Assembly (NCBI GenBank): GCA_963820525.1
Contig: CAWGAA010000002.1
Location: 654,535 to 718,534, forward strand
DNA: 64,000 nt
Origin: an uncultured Spirochaetota bacterium
Lineage (GTDB): Bacteria > Spirochaetota > Spirochaetia > SZUA-6 > Fen-1364
Direction of reading: 5' to 3'
The position numbers and the translations under genes were made by a program. The notes beneath the pieces are model-generated. The model saw nothing but the letters and a program-made list of their open reading frames with translations, did not search any database and had not been told where the DNA came from. Every line of letters begins with the position of its first letter. Positions within the stretch are counted from its first letter, which is position 1. Below are positions 309 through 7,089 of the stretch, piece by piece.

Positions 309-1562
309 TTAATCCATCGGTATCCGAGCCTCAACGACAACGCCCGTCTCCACCGTGAAACCGGCGTCGCCGGAAGGCGCATTTTCATCCATGTCGCTTC
401 GGGCGAGGCGGACGTGCTTTTCCTTTTCCAGTGCGGCCAGCAGCTCCGGCTTCGGTATGCCGGCCCACTGATCCCTCTGGATCGTGGATGCCATCGCCCA
501 TGCGCCGTCAGGAAGGAGGCTCTCGACGAAGCTCCTGGGCGTGGCGTTCTCGCTTCCGTGGTGCCCGATCTTGTAGAACCGGGTTTGTTTTAAAATATCC
601 GCCCATCTTGGGTCTTTCATCGCGGTTGTCCACGTTCCCCATTGCGCATCGCCTGCGAAGAGCAGGTGCGTGCCCGCCATTTCCAGAACGAGCATAAGGC
701 TCGTCCCGTTGACGGCCTGATCGAGCGCCACCACGGCTTCGAGGTCCGAGAATTGCGTGGAGCTTCTGATTTTTTGCCTGTCCTCCTCGGGAAAGGATGC
801 ACCCGAAGGCTCTCCGTGCTCGATGAACTGTTCCGCGAATGGGGCCCTGGGCTTGCCCGTCTCGTCGAGCGCGGCGGCATTGAGCCGCAGGTAGGTTTCC
901 CCCTTCGGAGGCAGCATGTCGCGAATCACGTCCTTGTTCCGGGAAGGGCCCAGCGCGTGAATCGTAACGCCGGGAAGGGCCTTTGATTCAAAGCTGCGCT
1001 CCGCTGGATCCTCGGCCGGGAGGAATCGCCTCCGCGCGCGGCCCTTGAACCCCGAATGAAGGGTGCGCATCGCCTTCTCGTTGGTGAGCGCGTTGCTCAC
1101 CATCTCGGCAAACGCAGCCTCCACGGGATTTCCCGCCGCTGCTTTCGCCTGGAGAGAGGCGCTCAAGGCGAGGGCAAGCCTGCTCTGAGTCTCGCGGATC
1201 TCCCGCGCCTGCGGATCCGTCGGATCCTCGGTCCACGGAAGCCAGACCTCGCCTACCTCAACGCTTGCCCAGATGCCTTCCTCGAAACCCGAGACGTGGT
1301 CGCGATGCCGATGGGTGACCACCACGACGTCGATGCGAGGGACCCCGTCCGTCGAGGTGGCGTCCTTCACTATCCTGCTCACAACCTCGGACAGATTCCG
1401 TCCGGGAGCCGGGGCGATTGTCCCGCAGTCGAAGAGGATCCGTTTCACCCCGTCATCCGCCGGGACGGTGACCAGGAATGCATCGCCGAAGCCGACATTG
1501 TACATTCGTACCGAGACGTGACGGGAATCTGCGCCATGGGCTGAAATCGAATGTTTTGACAT
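309..1562 (-). CDS. MBL-fold metallo-hydrolase (ComEC/Rec2-like, stand-alone, cytoplasmic)
   Basis: VGFGDAFL start, THRHRDH (HxHxDH), NGTSL, GDAQ and KIGHHGSENAT motifs; no signal peptide; long helical insertion after HxHxDH. Confidence 0.85.
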   Translation of the reverse strand: MSKHSISAHGADSRHVSVRMYNVGFGDAFLVTVPADDGVKRILFDCGTIAPAPGRNLSEVVSRIVKDATSTDGVPRIDVVVVTHRHRDHVSGFEEGIWASVEVGEVWLPWTEDPTDPQAREIRETQSRLALALSASLQAKAAAGNPVEAAFAEMVSNALTNEKAMRTLHSGFKGRARRRFLPAEDPAERSFESKALPGVTIHALGPSRNKDVIRDMLPPKGETYLRLNAAALDETGKPRAPFAEQFIEHGEPSGASFPEEDRQKIRSSTQFSDLEAVVALDQAVNGTSLMLVLEMAGTHLLFAGDAQWGTWTTAMKDPRWADILKQTRFYKIGHHGSENATPRSFVESLLPDGAWAMASTIQRDQWAGIPKPELLAALEKEKHVRLARSDMDENAPSGDAGFTVETGVVVEARIPMD

Positions 1563-1564
1563 GG

Positions 1565-3433
1565 CTATCCTCGGTGCAGCGCGGAGAAGTTGGCGAGCGC
1601 CGCGATGCGGTTTGAGTGTTCATCCGGGCTCATGTAAGGGGTGTTCGCGTTCATCGCATCGGCCATGGCGACGAAACGCCGCTGCCGGCAGTATCTCGCG
1701 TCCGCGGCTTGAGCCATCTGGGCAATGCCGGAGCGATCGAAGGGCTTGGTGATCACGTAGCGGACCATGCCCTCGGCCGATGCAATGATGGTTGCTCCGC
1801 CCCGGAACGGCACACCGCCGAACCTCTGCCGCTCGCCGGCGTCCTGTTGGGCGAACTGCGCCACAAGCTCTATCAGCAGCCGGCCGTTGGGCGCCACGCG
1901 GAACACGGGATGGAATCCGCGAACCTGGATCTTTCGAGGCGGCGTGGGGTCGAACCCGAGCGCCTGTGCGTTCGCTTGAGCGTACTGGGCGAGCTGACGC
2001 GCGAACTCCTCGTTCAAGTCGAGCTGGAATTCCTCTCCCTGGTCCTCCGAGGTGTACTGTGCGGGTGAGGCGAGCGCGGAGGGAAGCGTGTAGCTGGACG
2101 GAGATTCCCACCCGCCCGTATCGAATGATCTGATGGCCTGGAAAAAAACGTCTTGGAGAAGGGCCACCGCCTCCGTTCCGATGGGTGGAAGAGGAGGGGA
2201 AGGAGTGGGCCAGAGCAGGGACTCCTCGGCCAGGGACGATACCCCATCGGGATAGATGCCGCGAAGGCGGAATGCCTCGATCATGGCGTCGCGCAGGTCG
2301 GGATCGTCCTGGATCAGCTCGTAATCCGCGGTGACAAGGGCGCGCAGGAAGTCTCCAAAGGTGACGTCCACGGGCGGCAGATACTCGAAGGCACGGATGC
2401 ACATATCCACCACGCGCTGGGCCGTCTTCGCCGCCTCGGAGGCGATCCTGTTCACGAGATCGGGATGGAGGTCACCTGAGGGAAGCTGGCCGGTGCCGCC
2501 GGTGGCGATGCGGATGAGGTCGTAGATCCGCTTCTGGTACGCCTTGTGATAGCCGTCGAACACCGCAGCCACAAGGACGGAGCCCCTGTCGTGCGGCTCC
2601 AGAAGCGAATCTGAAAGCTTCGTGCCGGGGGCATCGAGTGCGGAGCGCAGCGCCTTGCCGCTTCCTGTCGCGTAGCCGAACTGGCGGGCCAGCTCGATCA
2701 GAGGCTTCGCGGTTCTGATGTCGCTTCGCGTCCTCTGGATATGCTCGCGCAGGATGTCGGGGTAGGAGAAGTGCTGGAACAGGGCCACGATATCGGCGAA
2801 TCCCTCATGGAAGGCCAGGACATCCTCGTTGGTCGGCTCGAGGAAGAGCGGCCGCAGGCGGTCCACCAGGGCATGGGTCATCTCGTGGGTGATAATGTCG
2901 TGCGAGAGGCAGGTGAACACGGTCTGGCCCGGGAGGTTGGCCCCGGGATTGGCGGCGTCGGCATGGAAGTAGCCGAAGAGGATGGCGTTGAGGTCCCGCG
3001 AGTAGAAAGCGTTCGCCCCATAGAATGCATGGGGCAGGAGCCGCAGCTTCCTGTAGGATGAGGCTCTGCGGCCGACTCCGCTCATCCGCGTGGGATGGCC
3101 GAGGGCGCGATCGAAGTTCTCCAGCGTCTTCATCGCCACGGCGTATACCATCTGCTGGTGGAACCTCGGATCCGACTCCGAAGGCTCGAGGCCGCCCTGC
3201 ATGAGAACGGCGGCGTTGTTCAGGTCCACGGACTGGTAGAAGCAGTCGCGGGCCCCGTCGTAGTCGATGACCTCCAGCCGGGGGCCAACCGGCCCGGGCA
3301 CGAGGTTCTCGTTGGCCACGTCGATATGGGCGCGGTTTCCGTACGTGCGGCCGAGAAGGGGATCCGATGCGAAAATTTTAAGCGGGCGTCGGACGGCCTG
3401 GGCTACTCCCTGGATCGGGACCGGTCGCTGCAT
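1565..3433 (-). CDS. gluzincin zinc metallopeptidase (M4/thermolysin-like), no signal peptide
   Basis: NAFY, HEMTH (HExxH), downstream HEGFAD third ligand, EPHDRG; SD AAAGGAGG; stop codon is 2 nt from the MBL ATG. Confidence 0.8.
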   Translation of the reverse strand: MQRPVPIQGVAQAVRRPLKIFASDPLLGRTYGNRAHIDVANENLVPGPVGPRLEVIDYDGARDCFYQSVDLNNAAVLMQGGLEPSESDPRFHQQMVYAVAMKTLENFDRALGHPTRMSGVGRRASSYRKLRLLPHAFYGANAFYSRDLNAILFGYFHADAANPGANLPGQTVFTCLSHDIITHEMTHALVDRLRPLFLEPTNEDVLAFHEGFADIVALFQHFSYPDILREHIQRTRSDIRTAKPLIELARQFGYATGSGKALRSALDAPGTKLSDSLLEPHDRGSVLVAAVFDGYHKAYQKRIYDLIRIATGGTGQLPSGDLHPDLVNRIASEAAKTAQRVVDMCIRAFEYLPPVDVTFGDFLRALVTADYELIQDDPDLRDAMIEAFRLRGIYPDGVSSLAEESLLWPTPSPPLPPIGTEAVALLQDVFFQAIRSFDTGGWESPSSYTLPSALASPAQYTSEDQGEEFQLDLNEEFARQLAQYAQANAQALGFDPTPPRKIQVRGFHPVFRVAPNGRLLIELVAQFAQQDAGERQRFGGVPFRGGATIIASAEGMVRYVITKPFDRSGIAQMAQAADARYCRQRRFVAMADAMNANTPYMSPDEHSNRIAALANFSALHRG

Positions 3434-3577
3434 GGCCGTGCCTCCTTTAAACCTTTTCTATCGAACTTTCGCTCGGAGCATACCAACAAACGGGAAAAAG
3501 CGAAAGAGGCCATGAGTGAATTGAGGGATCTGCCGCCGCCTGGTATACTCCCCCGGTGTGAAAGCGGGGTGAATGCC

Positions 3578-5913: not shown

Positions 5914-7089
5914 CTACCCCTTGCCGTTGAGGAAGGTTTCAGTGAACTTCTCCAGGGAGAAGTGCCGCTCGAAAAGCTCCTCGATCTCCGCGATTTTCCC
6001 CGTGTCGTAGATCTGGAGCTTTGTGTTCTCGAAGATATCGAGGATCTTTTGCTCGGCCGATGCCGTGTCGTCCTTGACCAGGACGGTGGGAAGCCCCGCC
6101 TCCAGGATTTCTTTTCTCACCCCGGCGTCCACGACGTCGGTCTTGCCGCAGGTGAGCACGAGCCCCCCGATGGCGATCCGTTTCTCGGCCCTCACGTAGG
6201 CTTCAATGATCATCCTTGCCCGCCTGCGCGAGCTTGCAGCCAGGATCACCACGTCACCGGCGCGCAGGTAGTCCTCGATCTTGAAGGCGTGGGCGTCCAT
6301 CGAGATTATCCGGGTCTGGCCGCAGGGTATCTCCCAGGCCGGGGAATCGGTTTTCTCCAGCGGCTCCGCCCCGCGGTACTTTTCCGCGATCGCACGCATG
6401 GAAGGCTTTCCCAGGTCTTCGATTTCCGGCAGGAACCCCAGGATCCGAAGCGGGCCGCCAAAAGCCCCATACTTGCTGTTGAGAAGGTCCTCCGTGACGA
6501 GATCTTCCATGCTCTTGATCTTGTCCGGGATGACCTTGTTGAAGATGATTCCCCGTACCCTGCTCTTCTTGAAGAGGAAGTAGGAGAGATCTACCTCCAG
6601 CATGTCCAGCGCCTTGCCGAGCCCTCCGCCCGAAAGGAAGATCACGCTCGCGTTCATCAGGTTGGCCACATCCGCGTTGGAAAGCCCCACGATGCCCCCG
6701 ACTCCCGGGTGGCCGGTCCCCTCGGCGATGATCACCTCCTTGTTCGAGAGGCTTTCCAGGCAGGAGAGGATGTCGTCCTGCAGCTTGCGCGTTTCGCGCC
6801 TGTGGTCGTCGGATCTGAGGTATTCCTGGGTGAACCCGGAGCCGAGCTTCACGGGAGAGACGGCCCGGGGGTCGAGGTCGGGAATGCCGGAGAACTTCCT
6901 GAGGATGTTGGCGTCCTTGTCCACGAGGGTTCCGTCGGGCATCGTCACAAGCTCGTGGCCCACAGGTTTGATGTAACCGATGCGGGAGGGGTCGATGAGC
7001 TTTCGGAGGCGGGAGATGATGCCGAGGCTGGTCACCGTCTTCCCTGCGTGCTGGCGGAAGCCCGTGATGTAGATGACGGTCGGTGCCAT
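5914..7089 (-). CDS. stand-alone BioD-like (AAA_26) + DRTGG protein, homologous to the N-terminal part of class II phosphotransacetylase
   Basis: ITGFRQHAGKT P-loop, IGYIKPVG, AEGTGHPGVG, GIIFNKV and a DRTGG-like C-terminal region; 1 nt downstream of the cimA stop. Confidence 0.8.
   Translation of the reverse strand: MAPTVIYITGFRQHAGKTVTSLGIISRLRKLIDPSRIGYIKPVGHELVTMPDGTLVDKDANILRKFSGIPDLDPRAVSPVKLGSGFTQEYLRSDDHRRETRKLQDDILSCLESLSNKEVIIAEGTGHPGVGGIVGLSNADVANLMNASVIFLSGGGLGKALDMLEVDLSYFLFKKSRVRGIIFNKVIPDKIKSMEDLVTEDLLNSKYGAFGGPLRILGFLPEIEDLGKPSMRAIAEKYRGAEPLEKTDSPAWEIPCGQTRIISMDAHAFKIEDYLRAGDVVILAASSRRRARMIIEAYVRAEKRIAIGGLVLTCGKTDVVDAGVRKEILEAGLPTVLVKDDTASAEQKILDIFENTKLQIYDTGKIAEIEELFERHFSLEKFTETFLNGKG

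Follow-up and report, generated by a model that had tools for sequence, protein, structure and literature searches.

Protease-gated MBL nucleases and a zinc-protease pair

In the passages of PMC12799240 and PMC12642450 considered here, on which all statements about published protease-MBL systems rest, cleavage in two inserts of a metallo-β-lactamase-fold (MBL) protein arms a DNase for trypsin partners (PMC12799240), MBL activation in the Canu system is caspase dependent (PMC12799240), and the gated mechanism is also shown for trypsin- and caspase-paired homologs (PMC12642450), the tested LmuA/Avs1a- and ComEC-type MBLs cutting DNA (PMC12642450). The MBL-partner clades named are trypsin, caspase, and S8 (PMC12642450), and “other diverse families” of proteases are mentioned for Fig. 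4A and fig. S2 of PMC12799240; the proven partners are trypsins and caspases, mostly acting under a fused or partner sensor. Here we analyze a two-gene unit on a 64,000-nucleotide (nt) stretch of DNA from an uncultured Spirochaetota bacterium (contig CAWGAA010000002.1, positions 654,535 to 718,534), hereafter the window, in which a zinc peptidase of the gluzincin type precedes a ComEC-type MBL hydrolase.

We consider it probable that this pair is a protease-gated predicted DNase that serves abortive defense. We posit that the unexported, M36/M4-like zinc protease likely cuts both inserts of the downstream MBL, which by homology with its trypsin- and caspase-paired counterparts would be an inactive pro-nuclease until cut and would then act on DNA, leading to cell death or growth arrest, most likely upon phage infection. 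More tentatively, the C-terminal domain of the protease, its conserved terminal His perhaps capping the zinc, may keep the enzyme inactive until a trigger releases it; since no conserved separate sensor gene was found around the pair across the loci examined, sensing would reside in the protease itself or in its fusions (S8, degenerate tandem copies, TPR-S). This interpretation draws on intact active sites, linkage in both directions, co-divergence, fusions, patchiness, and inserts at the gating positions of HamM, Avs1a, and CanC; the closest sequence matches of the MBL, the defense MBLs LmuA and Avs1a together with ComEC, likewise favor it. A preliminary description of this DNA had proposed a protease-activated effector module. 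Its interpretation is partly supported overall: there is strong support for the coupling, the inserts occupy the two positions known from trypsin- and caspase-paired MBLs, and the proposed mechanism would match that of the published pro-nucleases (PMC12799240, PMC12642450), but enrichment in defense islands is mixed.

The pair belongs to neither the trypsin nor the caspase systems. With the trypsin-MBL modules (HamMAB, Avs1a/Avs1b, VcMBL-Avs2, AtMBL-Avs4, Lamassu, and DRT variants; PMC12799240, PMC12642450) it has in common a ComEC-like MBL whose two inserts occupy the same positions and whose separate gene lies beside, and co-diverges with, the protease gene. However, its protease is a zinc gluzincin rather than a serine enzyme and has no fused STAND, HamA, or SMC-system sensor; its MBL is encoded downstream, not upstream, carries larger inserts, belongs to a separate clade, and scores far under the Avs1a cut-off. 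Like Canu (KaeCanABC; PMC12799240), it has a stand-alone protease gene upstream of a gated MBL and an extra C-terminal domain on the protease, yet the peptidase lacks a caspase domain, CanB is missing, the unit comprises two genes, and a caspase-adjacent MBL from one of our loci (L215) groups apart. In the subtilisin-associated MBL “Clade 3” of Evans et al. (PMC12642450) S8 stands directly before the MBL, as in S8-fused relatives of our peptidase; in contrast, there is no S8 at this locus, and the gluzincin is the constant partner to which S8 fusions look like derived additions.

Novel here are the zinc-protease partner, the lack of a conserved sensor gene, a C-terminal candidate for regulation, and evidence that S8-labeled MBL partners carry the gluzincin. 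The preliminary description had known of no characterized system that joins an M4-like peptidase to an MBL, and our literature search, whose coverage left out most subscription papers and in which key figures were unreadable, likewise found no paper on a gluzincin-MBL pair or a zinc-protease partner. The main text of PMC12642450 contains neither “thermolysin” nor “zincin”, three motifs of the gluzincin family are missing from the first 400 characters of the cells of its table, and the passages considered of PMC13069673 and of the Lipocone preprint do not describe the pair; the family could already be drawn as a clade in figures or supplements of PMC12799240 or PMC12642450. With a zinc-protease partner that has no conserved sensor gene, protease-gated immunity would gain a catalytic class, and such a partner raises the question of how a cytoplasmic thermolysin-like enzyme is kept off and switched on.

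Linkage of the pair and the inserts of the MBL

Both genes lie on the minus strand and were confirmed as open reading frames: the peptidase (P0001, 622 residues) at 1565..3433 and the MBL (P0002, 417 residues; predicted to be a gated nuclease from profile and fold matches) at 309..1562, with a 2-nt spacer and housekeeping flanks, exactly as first described. The arrangement is widely conserved. A genome scan with the peptidase found at least 597 stretches that encode a relative, the best 80 of which yielded 78 loci, and a reverse scan from the MBL kept the best 80 of 320 metagenome matches; both scans were built on patterns from the gluzincin-MBL family and are biased toward close relatives. 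An MBL gene follows the peptidase immediately at 68 of the 78 loci, which is 68 of 69 informative ones (nine stop within 236 nt past the peptidase, and at L065 the peptidase is truncated), with an intergenic distance of −10 to +25 nt in 60 of the 68. Conversely, the peptidase immediately precedes the MBL at 64 of 80 loci (63 found by script, L144 by eye), or 64 of 66 informative ones: two MBLs (L104 and L110) have no peptidase, and 14 loci have too little upstream DNA, although the peptidase terminal motif is visible at five of six of the latter that were re-read. Among 400 genomes drawn by the search tool, five encode a family MBL, each with the peptidase upstream (5/5). The linkage is thus far above chance and nearly obligate. 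Reading frames are interrupted by a frameshift or early stop in one gene at L017, L023, L039, L048, L072, L077, and L181, through assembly error or decay.

The two proteins also diverge together: their pairwise identities correlate over 63 loci (Mantel rho 0.81; none of 500 permutations as high). Patatin lipases, which often lie nearby, show no such relation (rho 0.15 and 0.07 with the two members of the pair, versus 0.72 between peptidase and MBL on the same 14 loci).

So tight a coupling could also reflect an inverse toxin-antitoxin logic, in which the MBL is active as made and is constantly destroyed by the protease, so that its toxicity is freed once the protease is lost or inhibited, whether through a phage or because the plasmid is lost. 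The protease gene comes first and is translationally coupled to the MBL gene without a conserved sensor gene, MBLs without a peptidase are rare (2/66), and 34 of the 60 plasmid records that bear the peptidase are conjugative plasmids, all of which would suit such an arrangement. We nevertheless hold it to be decidedly improbable: the MBL has large inserts at known gating positions, the MBLs at L104 and L110 stand without a peptidase, and Canu, which has the same gene order, uses its protease to activate (PMC12799240).

In the MBL itself the metal-binding motifs THRHRDH (residue 83), GDAQ (304), and HHGS (334) are complete; H86, D88, H89, D305, H334, and H335 are invariant in 61/61 aligned family members and H84 is present in 60/61. 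Its matches to profiles of defense MBLs are weak: PADLOC LmuA (PDLC03854) at E 2.8e-18, and NCBIfam Avs1a at 43.1 bits, below the cut-off of 420. The structure model (mean predicted local distance difference test score, pLDDT, 89) resembles the ComEC nuclease domain most closely (9ic4; Z 23.0, root-mean-square deviation (rmsd) 3.1, 254 residues aligned) and has the same metal motifs, but the membrane Competence domain of ComEC is missing and about 140 extra residues are present in two inserts. The protein appears soluble, with a maximal 19-residue hydropathy of 1.24; 4 of 64 family MBLs just reach our hydropathy proxy for an export signal (2.08–2.2).

The large insertions noted at the outset are real: the span from the DH to the NxxS motif is 196 residues here and 188–262 in the family (47 measurable of 61), as opposed to 59 in eight ComEC domains, and four LmuA/Avs1a-like MBLs (126–173 residues) show expansions at both of these places. 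Insert 1 (residues ~110–175; 1038..1235, minus strand), placed by anchor distance and the model, follows the HxHxDH region and is a helical hairpin with conserved N157, N161, M165, and L168; the segment that holds it, from DH to strand P, has a median length of 119 residues in the family, 50 in ComEC, and 83–103 in the four LmuA/Avs1a-like proteins. Insert 2 (residues ~207–284; 711..944, minus strand), placed in the same way and preceding NxxS, has a conserved MDPP, a Y/F/W-L225 pair, and PF, and its P-to-N segment has a median of 84 residues, compared with 9 in ComEC; it is the least confident part of the model (pLDDT 54–69 over 221–270 and below 50 at 226–232). Thermolysin prefers to cut before a hydrophobic residue, and this preference suggests candidate cuts before L159 or M165 in insert 1 and before L225 in insert 2; L159 is found in 38/61 and L225 in 45/61 MBLs. 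In the trypsin-MBL modules both inserts contain conserved Ile cleavage sites.

A quick, midpoint-rooted tree covered 55 rows chosen by hand, among them 25 of the 61 aligned family MBLs. In it 38 family MBLs, 36 beside a gluzincin and two without, form one group, and the LmuA/Avs1a-like and caspase-adjacent MBLs fall outside it. The group has a Shimodaira-Hasegawa-like approximate likelihood ratio (SH-aLRT) support of 92, and seven partners of S8 fusions are nested in it with a support of 86, both values being below the tool's mark of 95.

The peptidase, its C-terminal domain, and its fusions

The peptidase has the full thermolysin-like active site ascribed to it initially, with NAFY at residue 141, HEMTH at 183, HEGFAD at 209, and EPH at 279; N141, H183, E184, H187, E210, D214, and H281 are invariant in 106/106 aligned relatives. 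HEMTH and E210xxxD214 form the gluzincin zinc site, HExxH plus a downstream ExxxD, which the passages considered of PMC6117016 give as a defining feature of M4 and M36 enzymes, with a signal peptide and an FTP prodomain as hallmarks of M36. The family is large, with 5,435 cluster representatives at 50% identity (E≤0.001) and the zinc site intact in 149 of the best 150, but it escapes the annotation databases: the peptidase has no Pfam, PADLOC, or NCBIfam match at E 0.1, and its best PDB profile match is a neutral protease at E 0.67.

In the structure model (pLDDT 88, predicted template-modeling score 0.92) the catalytic domain (residues 16–405; 2219..3388, minus strand), delimited with VIA-align and Foldseek and containing NAFY, HEMTH, E210xxxD, and H281, has the fold of a mature M36/M4 enzyme. 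Its best match is an M36 fungalysin (7qp3; Z 27.0, rmsd 3.9, 316 aligned in VIA-align), M36 matches as a group ranging over Z 26.7–27.0, rmsd 3.7–3.9, and 316–319 aligned residues; M4 enzymes follow at Z 18.4–20.4 (thermolysin 5a3y: Z 19.8, rmsd 4.6, 278 aligned), and the top 29 Foldseek rows are M4/M36 without exception. The protein is nearer to fungalysin than to the M4 group, which refines the initial label of an M4-like peptidase. It was also said to have neither a signal peptide nor an obvious propeptide. By our hydropathy proxy there is no export signal: in none of 70 peptidases do any 11 residues within the first 40 average 2.0 on the Kyte-Doolittle scale. Residue 1 of the mature M36 chain aligns to model residue 16, so the protein begins where the mature enzyme does and has no N-terminal propeptide. 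It therefore shares with M36 fungalysin and M4 thermolysin the mature-enzyme fold, HExxH, the ExxxD third ligand, NAFY, and the distal His, but differs from them in the missing signal peptide (by proxy) and N-terminal FTP/PepSY propeptide, in an identity of only 11–16%, in the lack of a Pfam match, and in an extra C-terminal domain.

That domain, first noticed as a long C-terminal extension, is a conserved folded unit in the model (residues ~475–622; 1568..2011, minus strand), composed of a helix, a four-strand meander, and further helices, and is a candidate inhibitor in cis or sensor. The linker before it is modeled with low confidence at 444–464 and varies in length (33–90 residues between anchors); in the domain itself Q529, G546, T548, and R580 are conserved, and it ends in a conserved FxxLH motif (F616–H620; 1574..1588, minus strand). 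Of 256 proteins whose C-terminal region is complete, 237 have a [FLMAIV]xx[LVIMA][HD] pattern within the last 20 residues (227 with His, 10 with Asp), as compared with 3.8% of internal 20-residue windows for the His form. H620 is a possible fourth zinc ligand. The exchange for Asp in ten rows, nine of them from Actinomycetota, lends weak support to a metal ligand, and no site clearly covaries with the swap.

In M4/M36 zymogens the end of the propeptide can cap the zinc. A 49-region FTP profile aligns colinearly to residues 482–566 (68 columns) with a score of 26.6 and a probability of 37% (maximum of 40 shuffles, 13.7). With a deeper and more diverse alignment the same residues were aligned, but the score fell to 15.7 and the probability to 1.7%, within the range of 100 block shuffles, which reached 17.7. 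In the reverse search true propeptides scored at most 8.1 bits and reversed ones at most 0.9, and in a search of single members with FTP (PF07504) one of 60 matched, at E 0.066. No PDB sequence match for the domain lies below E 0.37. Among the rows listed for its Atlas structure neighbors there is no FTP or PepSY; three clusters of unnamed families, which we took to be the gluzincin family itself, exceed a TM score of 0.5, and all others are at or below 0.43. Fold searches with the full-length protein were filled by matches to the catalytic domain. A relocated thermolysin-type propeptide is a lead suggested by sequence comparison rather than a result. It would fit a bolder proposal, which we regard as somewhat doubtful, namely a sensor-less two-gene switch built as an inverted zymogen, in which the C-terminal propeptide and its zinc-capping His are both lock and sensor and the protease, once released, would cut and arm the gated DNase. 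On this view the subtilisin-MBL clade would have the gluzincin family at its core, S8 having been added later, and zinc proteases would join bacterial protease-gated immunity as its fourth catalytic class.

Among the best 150 of the 5,435 representatives, 85 peptidases stand alone, 31 have an N-terminal S8 domain, 11 are tandem forms, and 3 are joined to an MBL; a different N-terminal region is present in 18 and a different C-terminal tail in 2. The other N-terminal regions include phosphoesterase, DUF2278, amidase, TPR-S, α/β-hydrolase, and unnamed sequences, and fusions to GDPD occur too. In the S8 fusions the GTSxAxP serine motif is recognizable in 20/31 and the zinc site is intact in 30/31. 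An S8 fused to the gluzincin lies directly before the MBL at L066, L153, L154, L171, L175, and L212–L214, and two plasmid genes of this kind are annotated solely as S8 peptidases. Because the S8 fusions are nested in the gluzincin-MBL family, the published subtilisin clade may overlap it, and the gluzincin may re-assign the activator of that clade.

The fusions also allow the gluzincin to be a relay, with another protease (the fused S8, a host enzyme, or a phage enzyme) cutting the MBL or, to set off a cascade, the gluzincin linker and with general stress perhaps as the trigger. Such a relay could draw on S8 domains in 31 of the best 150 proteins, 20 of which keep the serine motif, on a variable, low-confidence linker before the C-terminal domain, and on caspase, CHAT, and S9 neighbors at some loci. 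The zinc site is nonetheless intact in nearly all S8 fusions and representatives, the S8 fusions are a nested subclade whereas 85 of the 150 representatives stand alone, and tblastn with the fused S8 domains found no match in this genome at E 1e-8; we think a relay quite unlikely, and favor direct cleavage of the MBL by the gluzincin.

Tandem forms often have a degenerate first copy. A second peptidase copy, upstream or tandem-fused, is present at L027:8231–9964, L031:8152–9981, L040:8028–9992, L087:2359–4173, and L138:2434–5988 and in P0123–P0131; such copies often lack the terminal FxxLH or have a degenerate zinc site and may be decoys or sensors. At L212–L214, from three kin genomes, the S8-gluzincin fusion and its MBL lie between genes for CRP, a 1,408-residue P450-DyP fusion, and an adenylate cyclase-TPR protein. 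At L172:11980–13761 a GenBank “serine protease” is a distant gluzincin with the C-terminal domain, adjoining a DUF1837 (Hachiman-type) gene pair. A trypsin fusion suspected at plasmid match H32 from the same label was rejected, the protein being a distant gluzincin.

Distribution and neighborhoods

The pair is a real, mobile, self-contained two-gene module found across many bacterial phyla, and in defense islands only sometimes. Hosts named in the genome scan include Acidobacteriota, Pseudomonadota, Actinomycetota, Gemmatimonadota, Bacteroidota, Chloroflexota, and others. Among close relatives the distribution is patchy: the peptidase occurs in 1 of 24 genomes of the same family and in none of 36 others of the same order, many of them incomplete, and the one same-family copy has different neighbors and an MBL from another subclade of the quick tree, a sign that the two were acquired separately. 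On plasmids the peptidase occurs in 60 records and the MBL in 35, side by side. Viral contigs gave just seven distant partial peptidase matches (L163–L169; 25–31% identity), all without an MBL, and a fold search of viral proteins gave no match at E≤0.001.

The picture for enrichment in defense islands is mixed. Five of six hand-picked plasmid regions have defense-type neighbors (restriction, NACHT, SIR2, TIR, DUF1837, HNH, ThiF, and an ATPase with S8), and the sixth has metabolic ones. The five matches in the 400-genome draw represent three contexts: three are S8 fusions by the cyclase-CRP-P450/DyP cluster of the kin genomes, one sits in a defense island, and one, whose MBL is frameshifted, lies among housekeeping genes. 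That island (L215:3171–17477, genome G457) contains a HyoA-like NACHT protein, the pair, a patatin, and, on the opposite strand, a Canu-like set of a caspase, a 446-residue protein, and an LmuA-like MBL.

A number of observations weigh against a gated DNase in abortive defense. Kinship adds to the peptidase-MBL correlation, and shared ancestry of a co-transferred operon would also give co-divergence, which does not imply contact. Insert 1 is modeled as ordered helices (pLDDT ~90), whereas the published gating inserts are described as disordered, and the profile alignment to LmuA/Avs1a-like MBLs is too loose within the inserts for cut sites to be mapped. A defense island is found in only one of the three independent contexts of the tool-drawn sample; the genes of the window are housekeeping or unlabeled, with no island; and relative G014 has the pair in a sugar ABC cluster with one PDC-S01 candidate nearby. 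In a Pfam scan of 121 neighbor proteins, from the 142 nearest genes and some further ones, most were housekeeping or unlabeled, the rest including 19 patatins and one each of CHAT, caspase, nSTAND1, NB-ARC-TPR, Tle1-like, and zeta-toxin-like proteins. Enzymes of lipid and phosphoester metabolism recur around the pair: a patatin at 21 of the 78 peptidase loci (16 of which built its profile) and 8 of the 80 MBL loci, DUF2235/Tle1-like lipases adjoining it on three plasmids and at L060, the phosphoesterase and GDPD fusions, and PAP2. The fold match next to ComEC, at ranks 2–3, is the phosphorylcholine esterase CbpE (2bib; Z 20.6, rmsd 3.4).

The last two points, joined by the acidic isoelectric points of both proteins (5.7–6.0), could mean that the gating is the same but that the MBL acts on a membrane lipid or another phosphoester, as part of conflict cassettes directed at lipids that also contain patatin, PAP2, PLC-type, and GDPD enzymes. 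We judge this unlikely: the patatin shows no co-divergence with the pair and varies in orientation, and DNA is cut by the tested members of the closest profile types, LmuA/Avs1a and ComEC (PMC12642450). Its lack of co-divergence and variable orientation also led us to reject the patatin as a third core component; it is a frequent but loose companion. These patatins are ~390 residues long, with GGGxR, SVSGG, and DGG intact, and stand in any orientation (L002:6696–7877, L005:3395–4558, L019:8750–9943, and 18 more loci). In the actinobacterial loci L045, L046, L049, L051, and L052 (e.g., L052:7737–9920) a ~700-residue protein with a partial N-terminal patatin match lies directly before the peptidase.

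Housekeeping flanks, here and in many other assemblies, would be expected of an ordinary metabolic or processing operon that scavenges peptides and phosphoesters without any role in conflict, as would a GC content close to that of the host and the conserved position by the cyclase-CRP-P450/DyP cluster in three kin genomes. We regard such an operon as highly improbable, because the pair has no conserved transporter or pathway gene next to it across the loci examined, the distribution is patchy, cross-phylum, and plasmid-borne, and the MBL is homologous to defense MBLs.

At the locus itself, a Shine-Dalgarno-like AAGGAGG (3441..3447, minus strand) is seen in the sequence 7 nt before the peptidase start. 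A gene for an ArsB/NhaD-type transporter flanks the pair downstream, and a divergent run of PAP2, glutathione peroxidase, and Zn-dehydrogenase genes lies upstream. There are no notable repeats, and counts of promoters and terminators are at the level of shuffled sequence. In an empty-site comparison a single homolog of the flanking transporter (75% identity; genome G004, one of four genomes with a match) sits in a different context. Elsewhere in the window, at 5914–7089, a DRTGG/AAA-type gene that we take from its motifs to be Pta-like precedes citramalate synthase and leuCD/leuA-like genes, a set that belongs to ordinary metabolism.

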